Source of the DNA: an uncultured Gammaproteobacteria bacterium | GTDB lineage: Bacteria > Patescibacteriota > Microgenomatia > Levybacterales > UBA12049 | Length of the DNA: 64,000 bases | NCBI GenBank assembly: GCA_965230895.1 | Contig: OZ246394.1 | Span: forward strand, 633,316 to 697,315 | Reading direction: 5' to 3' | Part shown: piece after piece, positions 16,198 to 41,062 of the stretch | Layout: every line of letters starts with the position of its first letter | Numbering within the stretch: position 1 is the stretch's first letter | The notes under the pieces: model-generated | The model's database searches: none | What the model saw: only the letters and a program-made list of their open reading frames with translations | What the model was told of the DNA's origin: nothing | Program-made: the position numbers and the translations under genes

Positions 16198-16243
16198 GAG
16201 CGGGCGATGGGAGTCGGACCCACTGCCTTATTCTTGGTAACAG
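16198..16243. repeat. Distal att-like direct repeat: a copy of the 3' half of tRNA-Gly(CCC). 32 nt are exact, then the match degenerates.
   Basis: The sequence is identical to 22480-22511 and 40997-41028, at 16198-16229. A tRNA-3'-end-like TGGAGCGGGC fragment and a GC hairpin precede it at 16168-16195. Confidence 0.7.
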
Positions 16244-16311
16244 GATGTTCTATTCAAAAACTCATCGAATAACTCTGCAATTTTAACAAGAAACCATGGG
16301 GTAATCAACGG

Positions 16312-16833
16312 CTATAAGGACTTAATTTTAGAATTGTTAATAGCTTCTGATATCTGTCTCGATATTTCACTTATTTGGTAGTCTCTTGTAATATGAACAT
16401 GAAGCATGGGAATATTTACATCACCAAATACATTGTCTACAAGTTCATCCCGTAAGCTTCTATTCTTTTCATTATGACTTCCTCCGTCCAATTCAACAAT
16501 TAATAAAGGATTAAATGTAGCTCTATCACAAATGACAAAATCTACATGTTTCTGAGTTATTTTATTAAGCATCGGCCAATAATCTTTGTCAGACTTATCA
16601 ATCGCCATAGTTACTAAATCTGCAATTCTAACTTTTGGGCAAATATACATCTGAGGAGTCACGGCTTGAGCCAAAACATCAAAAAATCTTTTTTCTCCAT
16701 CATTAAGTAAAGAAGTACCTTTCTGTTTATATACTCTTCTCCACTTTTTTTTTGAGGTGAAATATATGATAACTCCTAGAGCAATCAATATTCCTAAAAG
16801 AATTAGTATTAGAAAAATATTATTATTTATCAT
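16312..16833 (-). CDS. DUF2726-like membrane-anchored protein (predicted PD-(D/E)xK-type nuclease fold).
   Basis: It has an N-terminal TM helix, then KRFFDVL...HVDFVICD...IVELDGGSH. It is about 70% identical to the paralog at 29330-29857. Confidence 0.6.
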   Translation of the reverse strand: MINNNIFLILILLGILIALGVIIYFTSKKKWRRVYKQKGTSLLNDGEKRFFDVLAQAVTPQMYICPKVRIADLVTMAIDKSDKDYWPMLNKITQKHVDFVICDRATFNPLLIVELDGGSHNEKNRSLRDELVDNVFGDVNIPMLHVHITRDYQISEISRQISEAINNSKIKSL

Positions 16834-16837
16834 AGTT

Positions 16838-18625
16838 TTACCAATATAGTGTACTATTAGCCTTCAACTGGTACTCCTTTATTCTTTTATCTCTCGGATT
16901 TTCGAAATAAAGAATATATGCCATCCCCTTATTCGCTGCTGGGCTGTTAGGATTAAGTATTAATGCTTTTTGATTAAATTCCTTTGCCTTTGAAAGATAG
17001 TTCATATTAAAAAGGAATGTGCCGAGGTTAGTATAGGCATCAAAGCTTGCGTATTGGTAGTCCTTCAAATCTAACTTAGCCAAATCAATTGGCTGTAAGC
17101 CCAACTCCTGTTGTACCTCGGTCTTTACAAAGACGATCATGAATTGATCAAGGAATACGATCTTCCACTCAGGATCTTTATTCATAGCATTGAAAAATGC
17201 TAGTGTTTCTTTATTCTGGTCAAGGATTGAGAAGATGACTGTTTTTATCCCCTTCTCCTGCTCAAGCTTTTTAAACTTTTTGTAGCCTGCCAGTACAGGC
17301 AGATATTCTTCAGTGAAGTATGTGGCAGGATATGCCTCAGGTCTTCCATCGACAGAAACTTTGTATTCGGGATACCCACGGTAAAAGATGTAACTCCCAA
17401 TATTGAAGTTATTAAATATCGGCTGAGGTAACTTATTTGTAAGTACATAATCCATCGCTGGCTTTGCGTCTTCTGTGAACTCAAGTTTTGGCGTCCAGGT
17501 ACGATAGGTTAAAGCATAATAGGAACCATTAAGGTAAAGTATCGCTTCGAGGATGATAAATGACGCAAGGAGAATATTGGTCATTTTAACCCAAACATTA
17601 TCCTTCATATAGTTAAAGTTCATCAGTACATATGGAAGTGAGATGAGGAAAAGATACGGGAACCCTCTCATGCTCTGCGTTGCCAATCCTAAACCCAATA
17701 AGGTAAGTAAAATATTCTTCAATGAGAACTTGGTTCTGAAAAAACTTGCATAGATTGAGGCAAGAACAATAAACGCTGCCATGTAATAAAACCCAAAGTC
17801 TGGATTTACAAAATTTGTTTCCTGCAAAGCAAATATCGTTTTATTCTCTGTGATGGTGACACCGTAGTTATTGAACACTGTGAATGGGTAAATTGCTCCT
17901 TTAATGAAGTTTGGATTAATAAATGAAGCTAGAATTGAAGCAATGGTAACTCCCGTAAGTATCCATATCTGTTTACTCAACCCTGCCACATTCTGCATAT
18001 ACTTCTTAAAGAGTAAATCAGCCAAGAATATTACTTGGATAAATATCCCCACAGGAAAATAGATATGACTATTCGCCCATACTAATGATACAAAAGGCAG
18101 AGCATATATTAGCTTGGAATTATGCTTCACAAACCGCTCAAGAATGAGCAAGTGCAACACAGTAAAAAGAAAACTCAAAATCTCAGGACGCATTTCTGAT
18201 CGTCCCCTGAATAAATGGAGAAAAATAAATGAGACAGAAAAGAAAAGAGCAGATTTTGTTTTGTACGCTATGACTAAGACGATGCCGACAATAAGTAATA
18301 GGATCAAGAATTTGAACACAAGCATTGCTTGAAGCCCTATCGTGACACTTCCCAAGTAGACAAGCACTTCAAAAAGCCAATGATGGTTAACAAATGGGAA
18401 ATTGGGATAGGTGTAAGAGAAGAGATTGGTATTAGGAACTGATTGAGTATTCCAAATAATCTCCCCTAACTTTAAATGCCGCCCAAGATCTTGATTAAAG
18501 GATTGGTCATTGTGGAAGAGGAAGGAGAATGCAAGAAAAAAAAGAAGAGCAAAAGGCCAGAATTTAAAATACATTTCTTTTAACCATTTGATCTGTTTAC
18601 CATTCAAGCCTAACTTATAACTCAT
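16838..18625 (-). CDS. Polytopic membrane protein with C-terminal TPR repeats; possibly a GT-C-like glycosyltransferase.
   Basis: The 595-aa protein has at least 10 predicted TM helices and a soluble C-terminal domain with a TPR-like AKEFNQKALILNPNSPAANKGMAYILY. It is divergent from the large surface protein gene. Confidence 0.4.
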   Translation of the reverse strand: MSYKLGLNGKQIKWLKEMYFKFWPFALLFFLAFSFLFHNDQSFNQDLGRHLKLGEIIWNTQSVPNTNLFSYTYPNFPFVNHHWLFEVLVYLGSVTIGLQAMLVFKFLILLLIVGIVLVIAYKTKSALFFSVSFIFLHLFRGRSEMRPEILSFLFTVLHLLILERFVKHNSKLIYALPFVSLVWANSHIYFPVGIFIQVIFLADLLFKKYMQNVAGLSKQIWILTGVTIASILASFINPNFIKGAIYPFTVFNNYGVTITENKTIFALQETNFVNPDFGFYYMAAFIVLASIYASFFRTKFSLKNILLTLLGLGLATQSMRGFPYLFLISLPYVLMNFNYMKDNVWVKMTNILLASFIILEAILYLNGSYYALTYRTWTPKLEFTEDAKPAMDYVLTNKLPQPIFNNFNIGSYIFYRGYPEYKVSVDGRPEAYPATYFTEEYLPVLAGYKKFKKLEQEKGIKTVIFSILDQNKETLAFFNAMNKDPEWKIVFLDQFMIVFVKTEVQQELGLQPIDLAKLDLKDYQYASFDAYTNLGTFLFNMNYLSKAKEFNQKALILNPNSPAANKGMAYILYFENPRDKRIKEYQLKANSTLYW

Positions 18626-18729
18626 GACTATAATAGTATCTTTTTTAGTCTTTCTCTACAATAGATTTTTAACACTTTGATATATTGACAATGAAATATC
18701 CTCTTGATTAACTAGATATAGAACTTCAA

Positions 18730-21700
18730 ATGAAGAAACTAAAACTGTCCATCTTTAGTCTTCTCTTTCTTTCCATTGTCTTTGGATTCTTTTCTATTCA
18801 ACCAGCATTTGCGGATACAGTCACTCTTTCAGGTAGCGTGAAAGACTCTTCAGGTAATGCTATTTCAAATACTACAGTCAGTGTTAATGATCCAAGTGCA
18901 AGCAATACTACAACAGATAGCTCAGGAAATTACAGCCTTGTAATTGAAAGCGGCACATATAATGTCCAAGCTACTCCTCCATCTGGAAGTGGCTTTACTT
19001 CAGCAACCGCTCTTAATCGAAATATCTCATCAAGTACTGTACTTAACTTTGTTCTAGTCCCAACTGGAACTGTTACACTTACAGGGAAAGTACTTGATAG
19101 ATCCAACCAGCCATTAGCGAATCAATCAGTTGGTATTGCCCCATCAGGAACAAATAATTACGTTTTTACTACTACGGATAGTTCAGGAAACTACAGCTTC
19201 TCAACTACTTCCGGCAATTACAAACTTCAAGTTTCAGGCACAAATCCGCTCTCCACAAGTGCTCCATATACATATTCTATTGTTAGCTCAGGTACATTAA
19301 ATATTAACCAGAGCGTCATTATGGATATTCCACTTCCAGTGAAGCAAGTTACTGTTCATGTCCAAGATGTAAATGGAGTAGCACAATCAAATGTTGGATT
19401 ATCTACAAATGCACTTGGCATGCCTTCTACACCGATTGGGACAGTAACAAACGCAACTGGAACTTCTAGTTATCCAGTATCTGCTGGTCTTACAACAGAT
19501 GCATCAGGAAATGCAGTTATGTGGCTCTTCTCTACTCCTCCTTCCGGAAATCGTTATACATTTACAGCGACTCCTCCAAGTGGCAGTAGTTTTGTCACAA
19601 CGAACTTATCTCAAGTTTCAGTGACAAGTGACTCCACTGTTACATTAACCATTCAACAGCCAGTTACTCTCTCAGGTAAAGTTCTTGACCGAGCTAATCA
19701 GCCATTGGCAAATCAAACTGTTGGAATTGCTCCTCAAGGAACAAGTACATTCAGCAATACAACAACAGACAGTAATGGAAATTACAGCTTCTCAGTTGCA
19801 CCAGGCAACTATAGAGTACAAGTTTTGGGAAGTAACAATCCTTTGACAGTTAGTGCACCTCCTAATTATTCAATTGTCAGCTCAGGTACATTATCTTTAA
19901 CCCAGAATACAACTATGGATATTCCATTACCTATCAAGCAAGTGAGCATTCATGTCCAAGATCCATCGGGTAACCCTGCACAAAATATCACGCTCACAAC
20001 TAATTCAGTATCTATGCCATCCATACCTGTGGGGACAGTTACCAATGCTACAGGAACTTCTTCATATAATACTGCTGCAAACTTAAAAACCGATAGCTCA
20101 GGAAATGCCAAAATGTGGTTATTCCAAACTCCAACATCAGGAAATAGATACACAATCACAGCAACTACACCAAGCGGAAGTCCACTAATTACAAGGAGTG
20201 TTAGTTCTGTAGCTGTTCCAAATGACACAAGTATAACAATAGATTTACAGCAACAGGTAACATTAACTGGAAAAGTACTGAATGCATTAGGTTCTCCTCT
20301 AGAGAATCAGACAGTCTCAATTGCTCCTGCTAGTACAACCAACTTTGTAAATTCTGTTACTGACTCTAGCGGAAATTATACATTTACAGTTACATCAGGT
20401 AACTATCTTATTAAAGTTGCAGGAGTAAATAATGCCTTATCGACAAATGCTCCACCGTCATATTCAATTACAAGTTCTGGCACATTGTCACTTACTCAAA
20501 ACACTACAATGGATATTCCGCTACCTTTGAAAGAAGTAACTGTGCAAGTACAAGATATCAATAATAATCCGGTCCAAAATGTCGCTCTATCATCGAACGC
20601 TCCACAACTCCCATCAATTGCAATTGGCACAGTAACAAATGCTACGGGCATATCAAGTTATCCTTCGTCAGCCGGATTAGTGACAAATGCATCTGGTGAA
20701 GCAAAGATGTGGCTCTTCTCAACTCCTCCTTCGGGGAATAGATATACTTTGACGGCACAGCCACCAACTGGTAGTATATTTGATCCATTCAACCTCACAA
20801 ACGTGGCTGTTACAGCAAACCAAACAGAACTTATATCTTTGCAATATAATCACGCAACTCCCGCAACTACAGCTTCAGTGGTTACAGAAAATGAAGATGA
20901 AACCTATTCTAACCCTGCAACAGTTACTCTTTCAGCGACTGCTGCATCAGGATATTCTGTAGCAAATACGTATTACAAGGTAGATGGCGGATCAACTCAA
21001 ACATATACATCTCCATTTACAGTTAGCGGCAATGGCAGCCACACAATCAATTATTGGTCAGTTGATAACAGCGGTGCTCAAGAACAAACAAAAACGACAT
21101 CCTTCGTCATTGCTTCAACAGCGAGATTAACAGGGATAAATGTTGGAGGAAGTAATTCTGGGGACTTCACATCTGACACAGGATATTCAGGGGGAAGTAC
21201 GTATTCTACAAATGACTCTGTTTCAGCCACAGGAGTAACCGATCCTGCTTCACAAGATGTATATCAAACAGTTCGCTATGGTAACTTCTCATACACTATC
21301 TCTAACCTGACTCCAAACGCAGCATATGGCGTAAGATTGCACTTTAATGAACTCTACTGGAATAGTATTGGCGCACGTGTATTCGATGTGAAATACAATG
21401 GACAGACAATTTTAGATAACTACGATATCTATGAAGCTGCTGGTGGGAAAAACAAGGCGGTTGTTACAGAAGCAAACGGTACAGCAGATAGTAACGGGAA
21501 TGTGACGCTTCAGTTTGTAACTGAATTTGATAATGCTATGGTAAGCGGTATTGAGGTATACAGTGGAAACTTAAATGTTCCAACACCTACTCCGACACCA
21601 ACTCTTTCTGTGCCATATGGCATTAATTCAGGAGGATCAACTACTGGAAGTTATGTAGCAGATCGAAACTTTACAGGTGGCTCTTTATACACTACTGCAA

Positions 21701-22053
21701 ATTCAGTTGATACCACAGGATTAACGAATCCAGCACCAGAAGCCGCATACAAGTCTGTACGCTATGGTAATTTCTCCTACAACTTACCAAACCTTAACCC
21801 AGAGACAAATTATGTTTTAAGACTTCACTTTGATGAGTTCTATTGGACATCAATCGGAAGTAGAGTCTTTGATGTCTCAGTTAATGGATCTCAAGTTCTC
21901 AATGATTACGACATTTATGAAGCTGCTGGGGCACAAAATAAGGCGATAATTGAGGATATTCCTGTTACTACGGATGAAGAAGGAGACTTAAATGTTCAGT
22001 TTACCTCAGTGACTGATAATGCAATGGTTAGTGGAATTGAAGTAGTAAACTAA
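18730..22053 (+). CDS. Large secreted, surface-associated protein. It has three carboxypeptidase-regulatory-like repeat modules, an Ig-like domain and two malectin-like carbohydrate-binding domains.
   Basis: It has a signal peptide (MKKLKLSIFSLLFLSIVFGFFSIQPAFA). Three ~200-aa repeats begin with VTLTGKVLD...NQ.VGIAP. An Ig-like segment follows (YYKVDGGSTQTYTSPFTVSGNGSHTINYWSVDNSG). The two C-terminal domains match the malectin pattern (GINVGG...YQTVRYGNFSY...LHFNELYW...RVFDV) and are joined by a PTPTPT linker. Confidence 0.7.
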   Translation: MKKLKLSIFSLLFLSIVFGFFSIQPAFADTVTLSGSVKDSSGNAISNTTVSVNDPSASNTTTDSSGNYSLVIESGTYNVQATPPSGSGFTSATALNRNISSSTVLNFVLVPTGTVTLTGKVLDRSNQPLANQSVGIAPSGTNNYVFTTTDSSGNYSFSTTSGNYKLQVSGTNPLSTSAPYTYSIVSSGTLNINQSVIMDIPLPVKQVTVHVQDVNGVAQSNVGLSTNALGMPSTPIGTVTNATGTSSYPVSAGLTTDASGNAVMWLFSTPPSGNRYTFTATPPSGSSFVTTNLSQVSVTSDSTVTLTIQQPVTLSGKVLDRANQPLANQTVGIAPQGTSTFSNTTTDSNGNYSFSVAPGNYRVQVLGSNNPLTVSAPPNYSIVSSGTLSLTQNTTMDIPLPIKQVSIHVQDPSGNPAQNITLTTNSVSMPSIPVGTVTNATGTSSYNTAANLKTDSSGNAKMWLFQTPTSGNRYTITATTPSGSPLITRSVSSVAVPNDTSITIDLQQQVTLTGKVLNALGSPLENQTVSIAPASTTNFVNSVTDSSGNYTFTVTSGNYLIKVAGVNNALSTNAPPSYSITSSGTLSLTQNTTMDIPLPLKEVTVQVQDINNNPVQNVALSSNAPQLPSIAIGTVTNATGISSYPSSAGLVTNASGEAKMWLFSTPPSGNRYTLTAQPPTGSIFDPFNLTNVAVTANQTELISLQYNHATPATTASVVTENEDETYSNPATVTLSATAASGYSVANTYYKVDGGSTQTYTSPFTVSGNGSHTINYWSVDNSGAQEQTKTTSFVIASTARLTGINVGGSNSGDFTSDTGYSGGSTYSTNDSVSATGVTDPASQDVYQTVRYGNFSYTISNLTPNAAYGVRLHFNELYWNSIGARVFDVKYNGQTILDNYDIYEAAGGKNKAVVTEANGTADSNGNVTLQFVTEFDNAMVSGIEVYSGNLNVPTPTPTPTLSVPYGINSGGSTTGSYVADRNFTGGSLYTTANSVDTTGLTNPAPEAAYKSVRYGNFSYNLPNLNPETNYVLRLHFDEFYWTSIGSRVFDVSVNGSQVLNDYDIYEAAGAQNKAIIEDIPVTTDEEGDLNVQFTSVTDNAMVSGIEVVN

Positions 22054-22099
22054 TTACTCTCCTCCAACTTTTTCAAACTAGTTTCAATTACATTTTGCC

Positions 22100-22400
22100 T
22101 AAAGCATCTCTAGTTATATCTAAATCAATTCGATCGTCCTCATCTATTACCTTTTTAAAGGCTTGTATTGCCTTTTCAAGCACTTTATCTACTGGAGACG
22201 ACCGTTTTCAAGGGAGAGTCATTTACTGTGTCTATGAGGTCCTCAAGTACATAGTCACTGTAGTATTTATCCGTAATATCAACGCTTGTATATCGAAGTG
22301 TTCGCGAGACCAACGGCAAAGATAGTCGTCTAAGGCTTGTGTAACTTTTGACCTTGCAACATAAAGAATTACTTTTGAATTCCTTACGTGCATATTCTTT
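22100..22400 (-). pseudogene. Tyrosine integrase relic with an internal deletion. N-terminal and C-terminal segments homologous to the intact integrase at 39875-40927 are fused.
   Basis: 22335-22395 matches integrase 5' codons (GTAACTTTTGACCTTGCAACATAA). 22148-22330 matches the integrase 3' region (CATAGTCACTGTAGTATTTATC...). The ~750 nt between them is absent. Confidence 0.55.
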
Positions 22401-22447
22401 CTACAGCTCTAACATGAGGTTAGGTAAGTGTTAATCTTAATATTAAT

Positions 22448-22458
22448 TTCTACGGATA
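22448..22458 (+). repeat. Copy 1 of a recurrent 11-mer, TTTCTACGGAT.
   Basis: The exact 11-mer is also present at 34925-34935 (+) and 30099-30109 (-). All three are in intergenic DNA inside the islands. Confidence 0.5.
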
Positions 22459-22470
22459 CCTTAAAGGATA

Positions 22471-22511
22471 TTGAGCGGGCGATGGGAGTCGGACCCACTG
22501 CCTTCTCCTTG
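22471..22511. repeat. att-like direct repeat, a 41-nt exact copy of the tRNA-Gly(CCC) 3' half, forming the junction of islands A and B.
   Basis: TTGAGCGGGCGATGGGAGTCGGACCCACTGCCTTCTCCTTG is identical to 40988-41028. Confidence 0.7.
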
Positions 22512-22634
22512 TAGGAAGCGTGTCCCGCACAAGAAATGTCAAAAGTATGTAGCAAATACTAGCAAACCGTAGAGGTAATAGCAAACGTTGAAAACCACAC
22601 AATGAGCACAGAAGAGACAGCGAATGTTACTTGA

Positions 22635-23450
22635 TTAATTCTTTGCCAAGAACTTTAACAATGCTTCATTAAAGACTTCTGGGGACTCAATATGAGAAAA
22701 ATGCGTTGCATGTGGTACTTCAAGCAAAGTGGAACCTTTTATTAACTTATGTGCTGTCTTTCCAATAAGTGGATTAGTTATAAAATCCTTTTCTCCAACA
22801 ACAATAAGCGTTTTAGCTTTGATCTTGCCAAATTTTTCTTTGAGACTTTCAAACGGTCGTGTATGAATATCCAGCATTCTTCGAGATCTTCGGGAATTCA
22901 GGATAATTCGGTTCTCATACGATTTAGGTTTGAAAATAGTCGTGTGAGACTTATAAAGGAAGTTTGGAAAAAGATATTTCCCGAATCTTACAACGACATG
23001 TTGATTAAACTCCGACTTAAGCGAAGAGAAAGGCAATCCTCCACTGCTATAGAGTACAAGTTTTTTGACAGGAAATTGTGCAGCATAAGCTGTAGCAATC
23101 CTTCCTCCGAAAGAATGTCCAATGATAATTGGATCTTTAACTCCTTTCTCAGCTGCAAATGCATGGACAAATTCAGCATACTCACTAAGATTCCAAACCT
23201 TTGGTGGTTCTTGGCTCAATCCAAAGCCAGGTAAATCAGGTGCAAGTACATGATATTTCTTTGATAGTCGCTCTGTGATATTGCTCCAGAATGCATGCGA
23301 TTGCCCCCACCCGTGAAGTAAGAGAATATAGTTGTTTCCCGCTCCAAGCTCTTCATAGAATACATCCATATCGGATACAACAATCTTTTTTAAGTTAGTT
23401 TGTTCTTTCATAAACTGTTCCTTCTCGATCTCCTTTCGGATAATCTTCAA
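22635..23450 (-). CDS. Alpha/beta-fold hydrolase.
   Basis: LLLHGWGQSHAFW ... IIIGHSFGG is the nucleophile elbow GHSFG. The protein is 271 aa. Confidence 0.7.
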   Translation of the reverse strand: MKIIRKEIEKEQFMKEQTNLKKIVVSDMDVFYEELGAGNNYILLLHGWGQSHAFWSNITERLSKKYHVLAPDLPGFGLSQEPPKVWNLSEYAEFVHAFAAEKGVKDPIIIGHSFGGRIATAYAAQFPVKKLVLYSSGGLPFSSLKSEFNQHVVVRFGKYLFPNFLYKSHTTIFKPKSYENRIILNSRRSRRMLDIHTRPFESLKEKFGKIKAKTLIVVGEKDFITNPLIGKTAHKLIKGSTLLEVPHATHFSHIESPEVFNEALLKFLAKN

Positions 23451-23464
23451 AACAAATAAAGCTA

Positions 23465-24034
23465 CTAAGTAGATTGAAGAGTTTTAATTATTTTGTCCAC
23501 TGCTTCCACAGGAGAAAGAGCTGTTGTGTCTATTATTAGTTGTTCGTCGAAATCTATTTTGCTCAATGATTCAGGATATTGTTCTACCCATTGATTAAAT
23601 CTTTTTACTGTATTAATCTTATTCATTTCCTTGCGCGAATCACTTTCAATCCGTTTCTCTATAGTTTCTTCAGACGCTGTGAGATGCACGACGAGCACTC
23701 TCCCTCCAGCATTAGTAACAACATGCACAAGTTGTCTATAGAAGGCTTCATTGTCGCGCATAATGACACCAGTTGCTATGAGGTTTATATTAGCACTAAC
23801 TGCTTCTTCGATTATCCTTAAACGGAATTCTTTTTCTAGTTTCTTGCGTATTGGATGATCAAAACCGAAGACCTCGCTCAGAGCATTAAGAATTATGTGA
23901 TTATGAAGAAATGTAAAGCCTGTTGTCTTAGCTAATTCTTTAGCTACAGTATATTTGCCCGTTCCTGGAGCTCCATAAAAGAGAATAAACTTCATATTAG
24001 TAATAATATTAGTGTCATTTAAACTGGAAATCAA
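23465..24034 (-). CDS. P-loop kinase (AAA_33 / zeta-toxin / chloramphenicol-phosphotransferase-like).
   Basis: It has Walker A ILFYGAPGTGKYTVAKEL and is 189 aa. It overlaps the downstream P450-like gene by 20 nt. Confidence 0.55.
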   Translation of the reverse strand: MISSLNDTNIITNMKFILFYGAPGTGKYTVAKELAKTTGFTFLHNHIILNALSEVFGFDHPIRKKLEKEFRLRIIEEAVSANINLIATGVIMRDNEAFYRQLVHVVTNAGGRVLVVHLTASEETIEKRIESDSRKEMNKINTVKRFNQWVEQYPESLSKIDFDEQLIIDTTALSPVEAVDKIIKTLQST

Positions 24035-26521: not shown

Positions 26522-26548
26522 CCAATATTTTAATGCTATAATTATCAG

Positions 26549-32213: not shown

Positions 32214-32320
32214 TAGAGGAGATTTTAGCAGAAGCTCTAACCTATTGCTACATGCGATTTAATAACTTGTATTCTTTGGTCTGGACAGAATTAATTCTGT
32301 CCAGTGTCGAAAAAGACAAA

Positions 32321-32956
32321 TTACTCATTTCCTAAATCAACAACAACTCTCTGATTACTCCAAAAACTTGGTTGAAAGATCAAAGTTGCTTTATCTCCAG
32401 TTGCGACTTCAAAAGGTATTGATCCCGTTACCTTTCCTCCACCTGCTAAAGTTCCAGATTTTAGTTGGTCTTCAATTGAAGTTATTGTGTAACTTTCTTG
32501 AGCACCGTTTGCATCCTGAACTTTAAAATCAAATGGATTATAAGTTATCTCGTCACTACCAAGATTTTTGATAGTTACATTGACGATGACATATTCCTTC
32601 CCCGCCGTGGGAGTGTTATATCCAAAAGCACCAGATCTTCGGACTGAATTAACAATAAATTCTCTTTCGCCTAGTTTAGTTACATCACCAACTTTTGGCG
32701 TTGCATCCTTCTGATCCTCATCTTGAATACCAGAGTTTGCCTGTGTGGTGCTATTTGTTGCACCTGATGTTGAATTATTACTCGTATTGCCACCAAAGGC
32801 TGAAATAACACTTCCAAGCAAAATAAGCCCCAATGTAACACTTAAGATTGGATGTCTCTTAATCCACCCTCTCTGATCTGCGCGACAATGTCGGCACTTC
32901 GATGCCTTTGCATCAATTTCTGTTTGACATGATTTACACTTTTTTATACAAATCAC
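32321..32956 (-). CDS. Zinc-ribbon / TM / DUF4352-like extracytoplasmic domain protein.
   Basis: It has an N-terminal CKSCQTEIDAKASKCRHC zinc ribbon, one TM helix, a Ser/Thr-rich linker, and a beta-rich C-terminal domain (NPFDFKVQD...GG.V.GSIPFEV). Confidence 0.45.
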   Translation of the reverse strand: MICIKKCKSCQTEIDAKASKCRHCRADQRGWIKRHPILSVTLGLILLGSVISAFGGNTSNNSTSGATNSTTQANSGIQDEDQKDATPKVGDVTKLGEREFIVNSVRRSGAFGYNTPTAGKEYVIVNVTIKNLGSDEITYNPFDFKVQDANGAQESYTITSIEDQLKSGTLAGGGKVTGSIPFEVATGDKATLIFQPSFWSNQRVVVDLGNE

Positions 32957-33046
32957 CCCCTCTGGCCATAAACCCTAACAAATAGTTAGAGAATATCTAC
33001 GCCTAATTGTACCACAAACTCAAACAAATAGTTTGTATCGCAGATC

Positions 33047-33286
33047 GTGCTTCATTTCGATAATAGAGACATGAGAAGGTACTCACGTATTCCAAAAAGT
33101 CTTGGAAAAAGAATGCAGAAGTTTAGAAAGGATAAAAACATATCTCAAGTCAAAATGGCAGAGTTGATTGGTGTTAGTCCGACATATGTTGGATTTATTG
33201 AACAAGGCGTAAGAAATCCGTCATTAGCAACTTTAGACAAAATTGCGAGAGTACTAGGAGTAAAAATGTCAGAAATACTTGATTAA
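33047..33286 (+). CDS. XRE-family HTH transcriptional regulator.
   Basis: LRKDKNISQVKMAELIGVSPTYVGFIEQGVRNPSLATLDKIARVLGV. Confidence 0.75.
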   Translation: MLHFDNRDMRRYSRIPKSLGKRMQKFRKDKNISQVKMAELIGVSPTYVGFIEQGVRNPSLATLDKIARVLGVKMSEILD

Positions 33287-33404
33287 TTGCTCCACTTGCT
33301 ACTGCTTTTCAAAGTTATAATATAAACGAACGTATTTTTTATAGCTTTAATTAATCAAAAGTCATTGTATAAATTATAATAAATGTTATAATTTAAGTGC
33401 AATA

Positions 33405-34043
33405 ATGACGTTATCATCTAACTCTGCACTATCTGCCCCTAAAACAACCGCATATCTCCGAGTATCTACCATCGATCAGGATCTGGAGAAAAACAAAGCA
33501 GACATTCTAAAGCTTGCAAACACGCTTGAGTTAGGACATGTGCAGTTTATCGAAGAGAAAGTGTCCGGGAAAGTATCTTGGAAAAAACGAAAAGTAAAAG
33601 ACGTAATTGATAATGCTAAAAAAGATGACAATATTATTGTTTCTGAACTGTCGAGATTAGGGAGAAGCATGCTTGAGTGCATGGAAATACTTTCGATTGC
33701 TGCAGAAAAAGGAATTAATGTTTATGCCGTAAAGGGGAACTGGCGTTTAGATAGCAGTATCCAAAGTAAAATCATTGCAATGGCATTTGCCATGGCCGCC
33801 GAAATAGAGCGTGATTTAATCTCAAAACGTACTATGGAAGCTTTACGAGCAAAAAAGCTGTCTGGCGCGAAACTGGGGCGTCCTAAAGGCATTGGGAAAA
33901 GCAAGTTGGATCAGTTTAAACCTGAAATTGAAGGATTACTAGCAAATGGTTCCTCCCAAAAATTTATCGCAAGAAGATATGGAACAACGGAAGCAAATTT
34001 ATCATTATGGATCAAGAAGCATAAAATCACAAAACAAGATTAG
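33405..34043 (+). CDS. Serine recombinase (resolvase/invertase family).
   Basis: The N-terminal catalytic domain has TAYLRVSTIDQD with the nucleophile Ser. The C-terminal HTH is GSSQKFIARRYGTTEANLSLWIKKH. The protein is 212 aa. Confidence 0.75.
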   Translation: MTLSSNSALSAPKTTAYLRVSTIDQDLEKNKADILKLANTLELGHVQFIEEKVSGKVSWKKRKVKDVIDNAKKDDNIIVSELSRLGRSMLECMEILSIAAEKGINVYAVKGNWRLDSSIQSKIIAMAFAMAAEIERDLISKRTMEALRAKKLSGAKLGRPKGIGKSKLDQFKPEIEGLLANGSSQKFIARRYGTTEANLSLWIKKHKITKQD

Positions 34044-34079
34044 CCTTCTTCTATCTCTATTATATGATATATTCGAGAT

Positions 34080-34262
34080 ATGAGAGGGAGACCAATTGGT
34101 TCACAAAAACGTTTTAATATCACCTACCAGTCAATGGCGGATGCAACAGGCCTAAGTATCAATTCCTTCATCAAATACGCTAGTTTAAAAAAGTTTGATC
34201 CAAATGATTTGATAAGCATTGTAAAATTTGTTTCAGAATACCGTAAAAGAAAGAATACGTGA
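34080..34262 (+). CDS. Small hypothetical protein (60 aa).
   Basis: It is only an ORF, downstream of the recombinase. Confidence 0.25.
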   Translation: MRGRPIGSQKRFNITYQSMADATGLSINSFIKYASLKKFDPNDLISIVKFVSEYRKRKNT

Positions 34263-34263
34263 G

Positions 34264-34857
34264 TTATTGCAACAATTGTGAGGAAATAAGTATCTTTTGT
34301 CTTTCAGCCTCTAAGTATTCTTCAGGAACAAATAAAGGAATGCCGATTCTACGACCTTTATTGTCAAACGATTTTTTGCGAGGATAGCCTAGTTTTTTAT
34401 CATGTGCTCTATGGCATTCATAACATCTTCCTATGTAGTCCTCCAAAGCATATAAATACATTCCACTTTGATTAGACCAACCTAATCTATTTCCATCAGT
34501 ACTTCCACAGTCTACGCAGCGTTTTGCTTTGCCTTTGTGATAGTTTACATAATGGTGCAATGCATTATATGAAGCCATAATGCCTTTGTAGTTGTGATTA
34601 TTTTCACCCGAGTTCTTAATATAGACATCCATACTCCATGCAGTGTCCTTACCTCTCTTTTGATAAAGTTTGCTACAATCTGGATGAAAGTTGCCATATT
34701 TTTTGATTTTGCTAGGACGAACGTATAGTTCTTGTTGGCACTCTCCACAGAGAATATATTTCCCAGTCTTTTTCCTACCCCCTTTGGAGGCACCTTTAAT
34801 CCCTTTATTCCATGGAACTCGGCCAACATTGATTTTGTGCCCTTTTTCAAATCTCAT
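34264..34857 (-). CDS. Cys/His-rich zinc-finger protein, possibly an HNH-type homing endonuclease.
   Basis: It has multiple CxxC and H..H clusters (CGECQQE...HPDC; HHYVNYHKGKAKRCVDCGS...CYECHRAHD). The protein is 197 aa. Confidence 0.4.
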   Translation of the reverse strand: MRFEKGHKINVGRVPWNKGIKGASKGGRKKTGKYILCGECQQELYVRPSKIKKYGNFHPDCSKLYQKRGKDTAWSMDVYIKNSGENNHNYKGIMASYNALHHYVNYHKGKAKRCVDCGSTDGNRLGWSNQSGMYLYALEDYIGRCYECHRAHDKKLGYPRKKSFDNKGRRIGIPLFVPEEYLEAERQKILISSQLLQ

Positions 34858-34924
34858 GGTGTTATTGTAATAGGCGTTTGATTATCTGTCGATATGGTAT
34901 AGTAATCTCATAGTATATTAGGGT

Positions 34925-34935
34925 TTCTACGGATT
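34925..34935 (+). repeat. Copy 3 of the recurrent 11-mer TTTCTACGGAT.
   Basis: It is an exact match. It lies between the capsid-fragment stop and the HNH gene start. Confidence 0.5.
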
Positions 34936-35364
34936 TGTTGTGCTTACAGCCATACTCTGTCGATCACCAATGATATACATTGACCAGTCTCCGAAGTACA
35001 ATTCACTTTGTGGTAAATCATTTTGTTCGTAGAATGGATATCCGTAGAGTGTGTTAGGAAGTCGTACAGTTTCACCATTGTTGGCTTTACTTGAACCTCC
35101 ATCTCTCCAGATGTAATCTCCGTCGCCGTCTTTCATCTTTCGGAAAGCTCGCTTTGCATTACGGTGTCCCACGAAAGCCGCCTTTGGAGATCCAGTTACC
35201 CGTGAAGGTACTGCATCAATAAGGTCGATCAAGTCATCAAAATCAGCGTTCCCTCCGGCATTGATGCTATTAAGTGATTCAATAGCGATACCTCGTGGTT
35301 GTCCTGATCCTGATCCTGTGAAGAATGCTTTATCTTCAGCCAATCCGATTGCTTCCGCGAACAA
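34927..35364 (-). pseudogene. C-terminal fragment of an HK97-family phage major capsid protein.
   Basis: The 145 aa include AFFTGSGSGQPRGI and NTLYGYPFYEQNDLP, which resemble capsid-family motifs (aFlnGdG.gkP.Gil; tLlGrPV). It is too short for a complete MCP. Confidence 0.45.
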
Positions 35365-35410
35365 TTCTATAATGAACTGAACGAGGTTGATGTTAGTACA
35401 ATGGAAGAGT

Positions 35411-36142
35411 TTATCGGATCGAAGAAAGTTGATCTATGTATATTTCGACATCGGACTCTTCACGGATAAGCCTACGTAAAAAATTAACTACTTCAAGGTA
35501 ATTTTGCATATCCAAGTACATGTGCGTATCCAAATGAAGTGTCAGATAAACTACCCTTTTGATTGTGTTATTCTGCGGTAAATAATTCACAAGCTGATCT
35601 TTTGCAGAAGCAATCGTGTCTTCTATCTTATCTTTCAGACCTTGGGGCATACCTTGTGTAACGCTGCGGGTTTCCAAAGTTTGTCCAGTACCAAGCCGTC
35701 GAGTATTTTCTAGAATGTAGTTACGCTCGTCATCAGAGAAGCCAATGCTTTTCGACTCAAGCAAACAGCCGGGAGCAGGAGTTGTTGCTTCAATATCAGG
35801 TGTTCGTGCATTATTAACTTCTGGAATAAAGCGAACATTTGTATACCCCTCGCCAAGCAGGTAACCATATCCGCGAACTTCCGCCAGAGTATCATAAAAT
35901 TGCGCCCATCCACGAACAGGATGTTTAATTGTTCTTTGTAGAAGTCGTTCCTTTACATACTCCCATTTCGGGGCGTCCAATTTTTGCAGAGCCTCCTCAT
36001 AAGGTTCAAAATTTTGTGGTACCTGCTGCAATGCATTCGGGAGATGGCGCCGTATATCGTTTTGGGGTGTTTGTGCATCTGCCGTGGAACAAAATTCATT
36101 TAATCTTTGGAAATCCATAATGCCTATTGTACCACAATTCAT
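35411..36142 (-). CDS. Hypothetical protein.
   Basis: It is 243 aa with no motif recognized. It is divergent from the Mrr-like gene. Confidence 0.3.
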   Translation of the reverse strand: MNCGTIGIMDFQRLNEFCSTADAQTPQNDIRRHLPNALQQVPQNFEPYEEALQKLDAPKWEYVKERLLQRTIKHPVRGWAQFYDTLAEVRGYGYLLGEGYTNVRFIPEVNNARTPDIEATTPAPGCLLESKSIGFSDDERNYILENTRRLGTGQTLETRSVTQGMPQGLKDKIEDTIASAKDQLVNYLPQNNTIKRVVYLTLHLDTHMYLDMQNYLEVVNFLRRLIREESDVEIYIDQLSSIR

Positions 36143-36190
36143 GCCTGCTACAGATCAACATAGTCTAATCAAATCTGATAAAATATATTA

Positions 36191-37027
36191 ATGGCACTTC
36201 CTAAATTTGATGATCTTTATACGCCACTCATGCAGGCACTACAACAACTAGGTGGTTCAGGTTCGACAACAGAAATTGAAGAGAAAGTAGCAGAGGTACT
36301 GAACTTATCAGAGGAAGAAATAAATGAAATACACACTGGCAATAGGACAGAGCTTGATTATCGACTCGCATGGGCAAGAACGTATCTTAAATATTACGGA
36401 TTGATTGAAAATTCATCAAAAGGAATATGGTCACTTACCTCAAAAGGGAAAGATATTACAGCCATTGATAAAGACGTCATCAATAAATTTGTTCGACAAC
36501 GAAAGGATGGACTAAAGGCATTACAGCAAAAAAAAGATATAACAGCAGATACAGAAGAGAGCCTCGAATTATGGAAAGATGAATTATTAAACGAGATCAA
36601 ACAAAAAAGTCCAGAAGCATTTGAAAGGCTTTGCCAAAGGATACTTCGTGAGGCAGGTTTTATTCAAGTAACTGTTACTGGAAGATCAGGAGATGGCGGC
36701 ATTGATGGCACAGGTATTGTCAGGATCGGTGGTTTTCTTAGCTTTAGGGTTATCTTCCAATGCAAACGTTATCAAGGAAGTGTGTCTTCTCAACAGATAC
36801 GGGAGTTTAAAGGAACTATGGTCGGAAGAGCTGACAAAGGATTGTTCATGACAACAGGCACATTTACCAGAGATGCAAAATTGGAAGCATCCCGTGATGG
36901 TGCACCACCAGTTGATTTAGTTGATGGTGAGTTGCTAGCAGAAAAGATGAAAGAATTAAGATTGGGAGTAAACGTGACGACCAAAGAGGTAGTTTCAGTG
37001 AATAAAGAATGGTTAAAAAACTTCTAA
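36191..37027 (+). CDS. Mrr-like type IV (modification-dependent) restriction endonuclease.
   Basis: It has an N-terminal Mrr_N winged helix and a C-terminal Mrr_cat PD-(D/E)xK core (GRSGDGGIDGTGIV...IFQCKRY). Confidence 0.7.
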   Translation: MALPKFDDLYTPLMQALQQLGGSGSTTEIEEKVAEVLNLSEEEINEIHTGNRTELDYRLAWARTYLKYYGLIENSSKGIWSLTSKGKDITAIDKDVINKFVRQRKDGLKALQQKKDITADTEESLELWKDELLNEIKQKSPEAFERLCQRILREAGFIQVTVTGRSGDGGIDGTGIVRIGGFLSFRVIFQCKRYQGSVSSQQIREFKGTMVGRADKGLFMTTGTFTRDAKLEASRDGAPPVDLVDGELLAEKMKELRLGVNVTTKEVVSVNKEWLKNF

Positions 37028-37689
37028 ACTGTATATTTTAAGACACCTTTTACTTCTCCCTCTATATGAAAATTTCTATCCGCGGTAAATGCAGGTTGCT
37101 CAGGATTGATTGAGATTAAATTATAAGTAACATCATTGGGAGACTTATAAATTTTTTGTATTTTTTTTATGAGTACTTCACCGTTATTGACACAGACGGC
37201 TATCTGGTTATTGTCAACATCAGATGCTTTTTTAGCAATTACTAAATCACCCGAATTTATACGAGGCTTCATAGATGTTCCTCTTGCCTTTACAATAAAT
37301 GCTTGAGCAGCAGGAAAGCTAAGTAACCGTGATGAAACAGGGATGCGATCTATTGGATTACCGTCTAAAACCCCTCCATTGGGTCCACATTGTGCCATAC
37401 CATATAGATTTAAGTATGTAATCTGTTTATCCGGGCTATCAGCAAGGATTTGGTAATCCTTAGGATTGTTGGGGTTACGTTTCAAGTAACCTTTTCTTTC
37501 CAGTTGTATCAAATGGTGTTGTACAACGCTTGGCGATTTTGCATCAATAGCATCCATAAGCTCACGGATTGATAAAGGTTCATTTTGGTTATCGCGCAAT
37601 AAATTTATTAATTTTTGTTGTGCTGGATGGGGTAAATCGTTCATACCTTCTTTAATTCTAAGAAGATATGAATAGAAAGTCAAGAACAC
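37024..37689 (-). CDS. LexA/CI-like repressor (winged HTH plus S24 peptidase), a second LexA paralog.
   Basis: The N-terminus is SIRELMDAIDAKSPSVVQHHLIQLERKGYLKR. The C-terminus has GTSMKPRINSGDLVIAKK S24 motifs. It is transcribed divergently from the TM-cyclase operon. Confidence 0.7.
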   Translation of the reverse strand: MFLTFYSYLLRIKEGMNDLPHPAQQKLINLLRDNQNEPLSIRELMDAIDAKSPSVVQHHLIQLERKGYLKRNPNNPKDYQILADSPDKQITYLNLYGMAQCGPNGGVLDGNPIDRIPVSSRLLSFPAAQAFIVKARGTSMKPRINSGDLVIAKKASDVDNNQIAVCVNNGEVLIKKIQKIYKSPNDVTYNLISINPEQPAFTADRNFHIEGEVKGVLKYTV

Positions 37690-37757
37690 CTTGCTCTGTA
37701 CTATATTTTATGGTACAGTGATATTGTTTGTTTTATCCTATCGAACATGAATAAACA

Positions 37758-38258
37758 ATGCAAAGAAAAATAGACATAGCTGAGAAAAATCTTAACAGAG
37801 TACATGAGTGGATAAGAGGCATTGACCAAAAAGTTAGTATTTTTCTTGCCTTACAAGGTGTAATTTTAACATTACTCTTCACCAAAATCTTATCTGCGGT
37901 AGTTGCAATCTTTACGACAACTGCTGTTTCTTTCTGGGATAGTCTATTTATTTTATGGGCGATCCTAGCCTTAGGGTTTGGAGTATTTGAGTCCCTCCTC
38001 GCAATTTTTCCCAGAATAAATAATAACGCAAAATCTCATCTTTATTTTGGGGGGATTAAGAATTTAACATTATCAGAATACAAAAATGGTATGAAAGATA
38101 TTACCGATGAAGACTATTTTGAGGAATTATGTGAACAGGTTCACAGAAACTCTGTAATCGCAGTTGCAAAGGCAGAACATTTTCAAAAGGCTATTATAAT
38201 TTTCTTATTAGGTATCGGATTGTTAATAGTAAGTTATATTTCTTTCAAATTTTTTTAA
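37758..38258 (+). CDS. Small 4-TM membrane protein, first gene of the TM-cyclase-cyclase operon.
   Basis: The 166-aa protein has three TM helices between residues 25-100, a ~60-aa soluble segment, and a C-terminal TM helix. Its stop lies 2 nt from the next start. Confidence 0.5.
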   Translation: MQRKIDIAEKNLNRVHEWIRGIDQKVSIFLALQGVILTLLFTKILSAVVAIFTTTAVSFWDSLFILWAILALGFGVFESLLAIFPRINNNAKSHLYFGGIKNLTLSEYKNGMKDITDEDYFEELCEQVHRNSVIAVAKAEHFQKAIIIFLLGIGLLIVSYISFKFF

Positions 38259-38259
38259 T

Positions 38260-38982
38260 ATGCCAACAAATCAAAACTTAATTGATGATACAAACGATTT
38301 TTTCGAAGGAGACTATTCCATAACACAAGGTACAGCAGTGCCTGACACCGAAGACATCGCTTTAGGTAACGTGGGGCGTGAGATGGAGCTTGCTATGCTA
38401 TTTATTGATATAAAAGAGTCAACAAAAATAGTTAACAGTTTTCGTCGTCAAACTGCGGCAAAAATGTATAAATCTTTCCTTAGTGGTATAACCAGAATTG
38501 CTCGGTCAAATGGTGGTTATGTTAGGAGCTTCAATGGTGATGGCGTTCTCGTTGTTTTCGATGGTGGACACAAATGTAATCATGCGGTAAAAGCAGCTTT
38601 GCAAATGAAATATTTCTGTAAGGAAATCTTAAAGAAAAAAGTAGATGCATACTTGAAAGCGCACTCAATTGATGTTGATCTAAATTTTAGCTTCGGAATA
38701 GGAATTCACACAGGAAAAGTTCTAATTGTTCGTGGAGGAATAAGAGGAGACAAGAATAATGATCTTGTCTGGGTAGGAAACGCAACCAATTACGCTGTGA
38801 AACTTTCTAACTTAGCTACGACACTGCATAACATATATATTTCTTATGACGTTTATTCCTTGTTAGAAGATGCCCAAAAATATAATAATTCTACCGAAAA
38901 AGAGAATATGTGGACAAAGCTCGATCTCGATGCATACAGCTTTTATGTTTACAAAACCAGCTACCAGTGGGGGCTTGGATAA
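38260..38982 (+). CDS. Class III nucleotidyl cyclase (CHD, adenylate/guanylate-cyclase fold) domain protein, paralog 1.
   Basis: It matches the CHD consensus at MLFIDIKESTKI (FxDIxGFT metal site 1), YVRSFNGDGVLVVF (GD metal site 2), GIGIHTGKVLIVRGGIRG, and DLVWVGNATNYAVKL (transition-state Asn; Lys in place of the usual Arg). Confidence 0.65.
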   Translation: MPTNQNLIDDTNDFFEGDYSITQGTAVPDTEDIALGNVGREMELAMLFIDIKESTKIVNSFRRQTAAKMYKSFLSGITRIARSNGGYVRSFNGDGVLVVFDGGHKCNHAVKAALQMKYFCKEILKKKVDAYLKAHSIDVDLNFSFGIGIHTGKVLIVRGGIRGDKNNDLVWVGNATNYAVKLSNLATTLHNIYISYDVYSLLEDAQKYNNSTEKENMWTKLDLDAYSFYVYKTSYQWGLG

Positions 38983-38988
38983 ATAACT

Positions 38989-39735
38989 ATGTCTCGACAT
39001 GCAGAAATAACTCAAGATACAAATACAATTTTTGATACTACCTTTACTGTAACGAAAGGGTTAGTGGTTCCTACTGTTGCTGATCTTACTTTTGATAACG
39101 TAGCAAAAGACATTCCAGCTACTATGCTTTTTATTGATATTAAAGGCTCAACACATATCGTAAATGCTGTACAAAGAGCAACAGCCGCAAAAATGTATAA
39201 AGCATTTTTAAAAGGTGTGACAAAGGTTGCACGAGCCAATAGCGGCGATGTAAGAAGTTATAATGGAGATGGTGTCCTTGTAGTATTTGCAGGTGTAGGA
39301 AAGTCCAATAATGCAGTGAGAGCAGCAATGGAAATGAAATATTTTTTTCAGCAAATACTAACGCCGCGATTAAACAGATACAAGGTCAATAACCAACAGT
39401 TACAGAATATAAAATTTGATTTTGGAATAGGTCTAGATATAGGAGACATTTTGGTTATAAAAGCCGGGATTGGTGGAGAGAATAATAGAGATTTGGTATG
39501 GGTCGGTAGGGCTACCAATCATGCAGTAAAACTAGCTGAACAATCGAATGGAGAAAACCATATTCATATTTCGCAAGGAGTTTATCATGAACTTACAGTA
39601 GATAACTTGCGTTTTGTTAACAATAGAACATTTACAATACTGAAAACGCCAATTTGGACACAGACGCTTCCATTAATAACCGCTTTTTCATTAGGCAGCG
39701 TATATACAACAACTTATCATATCCCCTTAAAATAG
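38989..39735 (+). CDS. Class III nucleotidyl cyclase domain protein, paralog 2.
   Basis: It matches at MLFIDIKGSTHI, VRSYNGDGVLVVF, GIGLDIGDILVIKAGIGG, and DLVWVGRATNHAVKL. It is about 45-50% identical to paralog 1. There is a 6-nt intergenic gap. Confidence 0.65.
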   Translation: MSRHAEITQDTNTIFDTTFTVTKGLVVPTVADLTFDNVAKDIPATMLFIDIKGSTHIVNAVQRATAAKMYKAFLKGVTKVARANSGDVRSYNGDGVLVVFAGVGKSNNAVRAAMEMKYFFQQILTPRLNRYKVNNQQLQNIKFDFGIGLDIGDILVIKAGIGGENNRDLVWVGRATNHAVKLAEQSNGENHIHISQGVYHELTVDNLRFVNNRTFTILKTPIWTQTLPLITAFSLGSVYTTTYHIPLK

Positions 39736-39874
39736 AATTCACTTATCATAATTGGTACTGCTGCAATGGTTGATACACTCTGGAAAATAGGAGTCATAAG
39801 TGTTCCATTCTGAGCGGAATGTATTCCCATGATACGATTTATGGACCTGTCCGAATGGATATTGTTTGCAGTTC

Positions 39875-40927
39875 TTAATCTATAATTGCTTTGATTTCTG
39901 TATTCCCATTCGTATCTTTCTTTATTCTTATACTTATTCTTTCATCATTACCTATGGACCTTTTGAAAGCCTCTATGCCCTTTTCAATCACTTGATCGGT
40001 AGGTAATGCTCTTTTTATGAGTGGAGAGTCGTTCACGGTCTCTACAAGGTCATCCAGCACATAGTCACTATAGTATTTATCTGTGATAGTTACACTTGAG
40101 TGTCTTAAAGTCCGAGATACAAGCTGCAAAGGATTACGCCTTCTCAATCGGGAAAGGCTATAAATATCACGCAGCTTATGGCAGGTTAATTTAGAAGGAA
40201 TTCCTAATTTTCTTCTACCATCAGCCAAATTTTTGTTGCATGTCTTCTCGGTAGTATTGAAAACTCGTTTGGATTTAACACGAGCACGCATTTCTTCAAT
40301 CATATCTTCGGGAATTGGGAGAGGAGTAATTTTACCGCCTTTGGATCGGACGAAGAATTGAGGTTGGTCATCAAAAGGAGAAAGATCTGCTCCTTTTAAA
40401 CCAATTGCTTCAGATATACGTAATCCTGTACGCAATATGAACTGCAAACAAAGCCTTGTCTCACCTTTAATTTTTATGCTTCTTGATCTGTCACCCGGAC
40501 CAGGAGTTGTTCCTGCAATAATACACTTTTCAGCTTCTAATTCACTAGGTAATATGAGAGGATCACGTACGACTTTTGGTTTAACTAATTTCTGCGCAAA
40601 ATTAGTTTCAATATATTCCCGATCATAAAGGAAAGCAACAAATGCACGAAGGCTTTTTATTATACTTACTTTACTACTTGGCTTATTCCAGCCATTACGG
40701 TACATAAAAAGTGAATACTGACGACAGGTTTCGAATGTAAGTGGTCTACCATCAAGAAATGGTATGAGTTTATGAAGGATATCTCTTTTGTTTCGGACAG
40801 TTTTGGGATTTAGTCCCTTTTCTGCGGAATAATTGATGATGTAATCATCGTATGCTTGTTGTAACTTTTGACCTTGCAACATAAGAAATCCTTTTGATTT
40901 CTTATGCGCGGAGTATTGTTCTCGCAC
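39875..40927 (-). CDS. int: Tyrosine-type site-specific integrase.
   Basis: The 350-aa protein has catalytic RHR-Y context (GLRISEAIGL; CHKLRDIYS; RHSSVTITDKYY). It is adjacent to the tRNA-Gly target. Confidence 0.8.
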   Translation of the reverse strand: MREQYSAHKKSKGFLMLQGQKLQQAYDDYIINYSAEKGLNPKTVRNKRDILHKLIPFLDGRPLTFETCRQYSLFMYRNGWNKPSSKVSIIKSLRAFVAFLYDREYIETNFAQKLVKPKVVRDPLILPSELEAEKCIIAGTTPGPGDRSRSIKIKGETRLCLQFILRTGLRISEAIGLKGADLSPFDDQPQFFVRSKGGKITPLPIPEDMIEEMRARVKSKRVFNTTEKTCNKNLADGRRKLGIPSKLTCHKLRDIYSLSRLRRRNPLQLVSRTLRHSSVTITDKYYSDYVLDDLVETVNDSPLIKRALPTDQVIEKGIEAFKRSIGNDERISIRIKKDTNGNTEIKAIID

Positions 40928-40990
40928 TACCTGTCAATTCAGGCTACATAAGTGTATATCCTATTTACTCTAAATAATTAATTTAGTTTG

Positions 40991-41062
40991 AGCGGGCGAT
41001 GGGAGTCGGACCCACTGCCTTCTCCTTGGGAAGGAGACATTCTACCGGTGAACTACGCCCGC
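40991..41062 (-). tRNA. tRNA-Gly (anticodon CCC).
   Basis: The reverse complement folds as a cloverleaf: acceptor GCGGGCG/CGCCCGC, anticodon arm TCTCC-TTCCCAA-GGAGA, T arm GTGGG-TCCGACT-CCCAT. CCA is not encoded. Its 3' half is the att repeat. Confidence 0.8.

Follow-up and report, generated by a model that had tools for sequence, protein, structure and literature searches.

A probable tandem array of two related islands at the tRNA-Gly(CCC) gene of a Levybacteria genome

The window considered here is the whole stretch of 64,000 nucleotides that was analysed, taken from contig OZ246394.1. It contains an intact tRNA-Gly(CCC) gene (40990-41062, minus strand; ARAGORN), and between this gene and pyrG lie two adjoining segments, island A (16230-22470, 6.2 kb) and island B (22512-40987, 18.5 kb). 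Direct copies of the 3' half of the tRNA gene, referred to as attachment site (att) copies 1 to 3, stand at the ends of the islands and between them. A gene for a tyrosine integrase, IntB, is found next to the tRNA, and a remnant of a homologous integrase occupies the equivalent position where the two islands meet. The 24.8 kb from 16173 to 40987 is very probably a tandem array of two related islands integrated in the 3' half of tRNA-Gly(CCC) in a member of the Levybacteria, a lineage of the candidate phyla radiation (CPR).

Att copy 1 (40988-41028) is the 3' part of the tRNA gene itself and forms the tRNA-proximal junction of island B. Att copy 2 (22471-22511, plus strand) is identical to it over 41 nt and marks the junction of island B with island A. 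Att copy 3 (16198-16229, plus strand) is exact over 32 nt and continues as a degenerate tRNA-like extension to about 16252, reaching the D-arm. The copies span the tRNA from C36, in the anticodon loop, to two bases beyond its 3' end. A repeat finder returned one three-copy direct family, D5 (16195-16252, 22470-22527 and 40987-41044), whose leftmost member is 84% identical to the tRNA across 58 nt and degenerates toward the D-arm. The exact 41-nt and 32-nt copies named in a preliminary description of this DNA were thus confirmed both by reading the sequence and by a self-comparison of the kind proposed there. When up to three mismatches were allowed, a 19-mer from the core of the repeat matched only the three att copies (shuffled expectation 0.00), and a core 16-mer matched only the same three places (shuffled expectation 0.17).

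Direct repeats of the 3' part of the tRNA are therefore present, and the intact tRNA gene stands at the integrase-proximal end. This gene (73 nt) is base-for-base identical to the tRNA of L007 and L012, two genomes in which the site is unoccupied, indicating that the insertions restored the tRNA gene exactly.

IntB (39875-40927 as its open reading frame (ORF) is listed, minus strand) matches PF00589 (E = 2e-12) and the integrase family phrog_1. It has the R-K-H-R-H-Y catalytic residues of a tyrosine recombinase (R155, K181, H235, R238, H261 and Y271), none of which varies among 37 aligned homologues. Judging from these relatives, the true start of IntB is most likely the ATG at 40882, giving a protein of 335 aa, because homologues, P0001 included, begin at this conserved ATG (MLQGQKLQ...). 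P0001 is 335 aa long and 100% identical to IntB, and an exact-protein look-up recovered IntB in the 335-aa form only; the 350-aa form of the ORF was unmatched. The earlier view of an intact tyrosine integrase at 39875-40927 adjoining the tRNA holds as to its integrity and position, and the start of the gene is better placed at 40882. The ATG at 40882 is 107 nt from the 3' end of the tRNA, and the spacer between att core and start codon is conserved at both island junctions and in other members of the integrase family.

The integrase relic of island A (22076-22384, minus strand) was delimited by tblastn and blastn against IntB. Two blocks align, 22323-22518 with 40842-41033 (75%) and 22106-22321 with 39914-40131 (68%). 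No counterpart of 40132-40841 exists between them, which means that about 710 bp has been deleted. What survives is about 14 codons from the conserved ATG at the N-terminal end and some 72 to 85 codons at the C-terminal end, rather than the roughly 20 and 60 codons reported at first, although the internally deleted homologue itself was correctly recognized. The reading frame is broken: a stop follows the tenth codon of the N-terminal remnant, and both a frameshift and a stop codon interrupt the C-terminal part. A catalytic histidine is also replaced (LRYTS, against LRHSS in IntB). The position and orientation of the relic relative to att copy 2 match those of IntB relative to the tRNA, and the locus thus combines three direct att copies with a second, remnant integrase after the internal copy, as in a tandem array. 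Many homologues are 65 to 69% identical to the surviving C-terminal piece, and IntB is not closer to it than the others, which argues for separate acquisitions and not for duplication of one element.

The window pyrG was used to scan species-representative genomes, yielding 80 loci, and where the titles are informative almost all are Levybacteria or other Microgenomates/Patescibacteria. Many metagenome-assembled genomes with a Levybacteria-like pyrG order (L004, L012, L018 and others) are titled 'uncultured Gammaproteobacteria bacterium' and are evidently mislabelled; titles naming Sulfotelmatobacter or Methylomirabilota, found on other such genomes, are evidently wrong as well.

The closest genome among those compared is L004, with pyrG 97% identical at the amino acid level and flanks about 84% identical at the nucleotide level. 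Its gene order is tRNA-Asp, LysM, tRNA-Gly(CCC), a 142-aa gene and pyrG, and its tRNA-to-pyrG gap is 489 bp. On the tRNA side the alignment of the L004 flanks to the window reaches 40989, and on the pyrG side it starts again at 16172 (16172-11408). This short gap between colinear flanks is the empty attB that the preliminary description had suggested seeking in related genomes. Of 56 relatives scanned, 42 have tRNA-Gly(CCC) upstream of pyrG at a distance of 48 to 3,852 bp (median 766 bp), compared with 25,315 bp in the window. Island B is absent from the site in L004 and in other relatives, and island A is likewise missing where relatives have the site empty. In the 80 related pyrG loci there is neither a homologue of the integrase nor another copy of the tRNA 3' half, and no close relatives of island genes (> 36% amino acid identity) were found in related pyrG neighbourhoods. 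The LysM gene is present in 49 of the 80 loci. Exact-protein look-ups of the 142-aa flank gene, with both possible starts, gave no match. The proposal that about 25 kb of accessory DNA entered here by at least two serial integrations is borne out by the empty site and the independent relic.

At the pyrG side the comparison with L004 also fixes the edge of the foreign DNA. A fragment of the tRNA 3' end, TGGAGCGGGC (16163-16172), is followed by a 25-nt spacer (16173-16197; the two together 16163-16197, plus strand). The fragment had been noted before as an acceptor-end piece beside the outer copy. In tRNA orientation L004 reads GCCCGCTC-ATAATCTGCCTTACTT and the window GCCCGCTC-CAAATCTGCCTTACTT. 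As the 3' end of the L004 tRNA runs into the window sequence past 16172, TGGAGCGGGC is the ancestral chromosomal end of the tRNA, still in place. It follows that the boundary between chromosome and island falls at 16172/16173, with foreign DNA from 16173 on, and the left edge has to be moved there from the position first given, 16198. The spacer reads TAAAAGAGCGAGGCTCGCTTCGGCG in tRNA orientation, and a copy of GCCCGCTC stands, in effect, on either side of it.

A motif of this region, GAGCGAGGYTCGC, occurs only twice in the 1.68 Mb compared: in the spacer of the window (16173-16197) and at 18543-18575 of L090, an unrelated CPR contig, where it lies 14 nt after the outermost, 18-nt fragment of tRNA-Gly. 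The left-end stretch could be what is left of a third element, the oldest of all, or else part of a former host's tRNA flank that came in with island A. The ancestral fragment possibly leaves room for such a third, older event. A role of the spacer and ancestral fragment as a terminator hairpin was considered and rejected, since folding compared with shuffled sequences gave insignificant z-scores of -1.9 and -1.35.

The architecture seen in the window recurs with related integrases elsewhere. A large protein collection holds 72 homologues of IntB, the best of them 70 to 74% identical. Where the available DNA suffices, members of the integrase family (41 to 72% identical) are encoded immediately downstream of tRNA-Gly, in most cases the gene for the GCC isoacceptor (L090, L093, L094, L096, L097, L099, L101, L102, L104, L105, L106, L109, L111 and L112). 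Beyond position 35 in the 3' direction the two Gly isoacceptor genes of these organisms hardly differ, and one attP would therefore suit both. Distal repeats in L090 and L116 begin at the same anticodon-loop position as in the window, with CAAGGAG or CAACGAA. Stacked arrangements are found as well: L090 has a third, 18-nt att fragment, in L099 the beginning of another integrase gene follows a second att copy, L115 carries its integrase after the second of three att copies, and L116 has two integrases, a relic and one distal copy. The elements of the family have only the integrase and an XRE-type regulator in common, plus a serine recombinase in one case; the minimal backbone is thus integrase plus XRE regulator, with variable cargo.

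The clade of IntB has no named member, and source annotations give only 'XerD' or 'integrase'. A limited literature search found no description of the IntB family or of tRNA-Gly islands in Levybacteria, turning up general studies of island tandems and accretion instead, and IMG/VR contains no close relatives of the integrase. It is conceivable, although less likely than not, that these integrases define an undescribed tRNA-Gly-specific family which extends across the Microgenomates, stacks repeatedly at both Gly isoacceptor genes through the segment from C36 to the 3' end, and carries defence and surface genes.

Some homologues are arranged differently. L114 has two complete tRNA-Gly(CCC) genes on the minus strand, separated by 9 kb (2438-2511 and 11471-11544); its family integrase (47% identical) begins 56 nt from the 5' end of the first gene and is directed away from it, a layout unlike that of the rest of the family. 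In L109 (10004-13566) and L112 (1120-4124) two convergent family integrases, 62 to 65% identical to each other's relatives, lie within 3.5 kb directly after tRNA-Gly(GCC). In L100 an integrase of the family follows tRNA-Glu(TTC). Reticulibacter mediterranei, a cultured Ktedonobacterium of the Chloroflexota, encodes one (L089 9900-11026, BNJK01000002.1) that is 72% identical to IntB. Only a tRNA-Glu-like 3' half precedes this gene, ARAGORN detecting no full tRNA, and its neighbours are a Replic_Relax gene, a TIR-domain gene and a gene with a faint match to a type IV secretion system (T4SS) coupling protein. This hints at exchange of the elements outside the CPR. On the same tentative reading as above, the family could pass between CPR bacteria and others, which may be their hosts, with conjugative vehicles as carriers.

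In the proposed mechanism, each element would have supplied a tyrosine integrase and an attP copying the tRNA from C36 to the 3' end. Recombination within the shared stretch would rebuild an intact tRNA at the integrase-proximal end and leave a partial copy at the distal end. Island A would later have lost about 710 bp of its integrase gene and would now be fixed unless an integrase acts in trans; IntB may be able to move it in this way. Three direct att copies and a relic in its own family position uphold the earlier suggestion of serial site-specific integrations into one attB.

Island A is probably the older of the two, given the decay of its integrase and its shorter exact repeat. Position alone says nothing about the order, since integration into the distal copy yields the same arrangement. 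With an intact integrase and exact 41-bp repeats, island B may still excise, alone or together with island A.

Several observations weigh against the integration of two foreign islands, or fit it poorly. A plain two-event model does not fit the left end, with its 25-nt spacer and 8-nt copy of GCCCGCTC. There is no step in GC content (0.372 to 0.379 in the islands, 0.382 to 0.388 in the flanks), and the tetranucleotide signal of island B is weak (0.91 to 0.93 in 5-kb windows, against 0.93 to 0.97 for the flanks). No relaxase, T4SS, excisionase or full virion module was found in the island ORFs, which leaves transfer between cells unexplained. Independent Logan contigs containing the LysM gene or the integrase all end inside the tRNA or repeat and are thus unable to reveal circles, an empty site or alternative junctions. 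The correlation of tetranucleotide usage with the flanks is lowest in island A (0.78 to 0.84), where one repetitive gene dominates, and this odd signal is due to the repeat-bearing 1107-aa gene described below. Comparing composition between 16 and 41 kb and the flanks, a check advised at the outset, is nearly uninformative. Probably the donors of the islands were similar in composition to the present host, or the islands have ameliorated.

A single integration could also account for the locus if the islands had been stacked in an earlier host and then entered ready-made, as a composite, through the outermost att copies. Tandem arrays of the family in other genomes are possible donors, recombination between outer att sites moves accreted elements as a unit in streptococcal cis-mobilizable elements (CIMEs) and integrative conjugative elements (ICEs), and the GC content of both islands is host-like. 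However, the exact match to the tRNA is 41 nt at the middle copy and 32 nt at the outer copy, the reverse of what composite import predicts, and the decayed integrase of island A beside the intact one of island B suggests unequal residence times. We consider import as a unit improbable. More improbable still is that the contig, which is metagenome-assembled, is a chimera in which one or both islands of another population were joined to the chromosome through the shared 41-nt or 32-nt tRNA repeat. Contigs built with k = 31 from five samples do break within the repeat (start 41017), as short k-mers cannot bridge it, but 41 nt is less than a normal read length and less than the larger k-mers of assemblers. 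Tetranucleotide usage is near that of the flanks, and five samples in which the flank is present as well share the island sequence at 100% identity. Moreover, the repeats are correctly oriented at both ends and the integrase or relic is tRNA-proximal, which means that each island resides in a tRNA-Gly gene of the same sequence somewhere, even if the assembly had joined them wrongly.

The idea that the partial copies arose by local duplication and decay of the tRNA, the genes between them being ordinary lineage-specific chromosome, is effectively refuted. CPR genomes do have clusters of tRNA genes, and Leu-Leu-Val-Phe-Gly arrays were seen, yet here the copies are all 3' halves in direct orientation, and an integrase or its relic follows each with a conserved spacer. 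In addition, the site is empty in 42 relatives, and the same anticodon-loop boundary of the repeat is found in unrelated contigs that have the same integrase family. Serial integration of two related islands thus remains the preferred reading of the locus.

For the contents of the islands, 27 ORFs of at least 60 aa were taken as genes and scanned with Pfam, PHROGs and NCBIfam; six of the 27 proteins have no family. The scan revealed no terminase, portal, coupling protein or mobilisation module. An ICE or an integrative and mobilizable element (IME) was rejected as a classification, as no relaxase, T4SS, coupling protein or mobilisation module was recognised in the island ORFs scanned. Prophage or phage satellite was likewise rejected for island B, in which a capsid fragment of 145 aa is present and the other modules are missing.

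Island A has three genes besides the relic. One for a DUF2726 protein (16312-16833, minus strand) stands at its att-distal end, and another encodes a 595-aa protein with a weak, sub-threshold match to TPR_1 (16838-18625, minus strand). The largest gene (18730-22053, plus strand) encodes a repeat-rich, adhesin-like surface protein of 1107 aa with Malectin, Big_1 and CarboxypepD_reg domains. Within it, 18901-20556 (plus strand) consists of three to four diverged tandem modules of about 591 to 594 nt (repeat families D2 to D4), which encode repeated CarboxypepD_reg and Big_1 domains.

A second DUF2726 protein is encoded in the middle of island B (29330-29857, minus strand). The two paralogues, one in each island, are 72% identical over 300 nt (repeat family D1; 16312-16833 and 29330-29857). 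A division of island B at the second DUF2726 gene (29.3-30.1 kb) was tried and rejected, there being no fourth att copy with up to three mismatches. No DUF2726 homologue was found in the 80 pyrG-neighbourhood loci or in the other integrase-family loci compared. On these two counts there is no evidence that island B is itself composite.

Close to IntB, island B carries a Pycsar operon (37758-39735, plus strand). It consists of the effector PycTM (37758-38258) and two cyclases, PycC (38260-38982 and 38989-39735), recognized by PADLOC (1.6e-35 for PycTM, 2.4e-75 and 3.7e-65 for PycC) and by Pfam (PF18967 and PF00211). The predicted cyclase and effector genes are adjacent, contiguous and co-oriented. 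Two tandem PycC proteins (240 and 248 aa), each a strong match to one and the same PADLOC model, accompany one PycTM; this arrangement might reflect cyclases that work as heterodimers or the use of two nucleotide signals. Upstream is the gene for an Mrr-type (type IV, modification-dependent) restriction endonuclease (36191-37027, plus strand) with Mrr_N and Mrr_cat domains (PADLOC mREase_IV, 3.2e-31).

The XRE-type helix-turn-helix regulator of island B (33047-33286, plus strand; HTH_3) has copies 42 to 53% identical in 12 related loci, including the elements of L090, L099 and L112 (tblastn), and is, after the integrase, the gene most widely shared with elements of the family. A fragment of an HK97-type major head protein (34927-35364, minus strand; 145 aa) covers positions 102-245 of 280 of PF05065 and matches phrog_10. 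Its neighbours (35411-36142, 243 aa, and 34264-34857, 197 aa, both minus strand) had no family match. The fragment is either a prophage remnant within island B or a domesticated piece of capsid. Other genes of island B encode a LexA/CI-like S24 repressor, a serine invertase, a DUF4352 protein and a Schlafen/AlbA_2 protein. There is in addition a block of genes of metabolic type, for a HAD phosphatase, for cysteine desulfurase-like, TIM-barrel, PLD-like and P450-like proteins, for a P-loop kinase and for an alpha/beta hydrolase.

The mechanism is classical site-specific integration, here in an unusual host. The islands resemble the tRNA islands catalogued by Islander and TIGER, with P4- or lambda-type integrases, in that an integrase lies beside the tRNA, a direct repeat marks the 3' end, the tRNA is restored, the site is empty in related genomes and a variable cargo is carried in which defence genes are plentiful. 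They differ in their host, Levybacteria/Microgenomates, in an integrase clade without a name, and in showing no GC deviation and no recognised excisionase. Classes of sublocation within tRNA genes were reportedly set out by Williams in 2002, the relevant subclass here being crossover in the anticodon loop.

Tandem accretion is a further point of likeness. Four papers describe streptococcal CIME-ICE/IME arrays and composite and tandem enterobacterial islands at Asn, Leu and Phe tRNA genes (PMC5704250, PMC7563491, PMC4891358, PMC8978831). As in such arrays, there are three direct att sites, one element with an active-type integrase, and a neighbour without integrase that would be movable in cis or in trans with its partner. 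In contrast, the elements of the window lack a conjugation or mobilisation module and are hence neither ICE nor IME as defined.

Defence islands also occur on integrative elements such as pipolins (PMC11551731), and on P4-like satellites and satellites resembling phage-inducible chromosomal islands (PICIs). The likeness lies in a small, integrase-bounded element with several anti-phage systems, namely Pycsar, Mrr, and Schlafen/AlbA_2-type and DUF2726-type proteins. Unlike pipolins and satellites, the islands of the window have no pPolB, primase or replicase, capsid-remodelling or packaging genes, and only the 145-aa capsid fragment.

The locus provides a cleanly delimited case in which a reduced, probably symbiotic CPR genome has gained the anti-phage systems Pycsar and Mrr and a large surface protein. 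The integrase clade, together with its tRNA-Gly target of 38 to 41 bp, could help to find more islands in CPR metagenomes. In principle, it might also serve as a tool for site-specific integration in organisms that have no genetic system.

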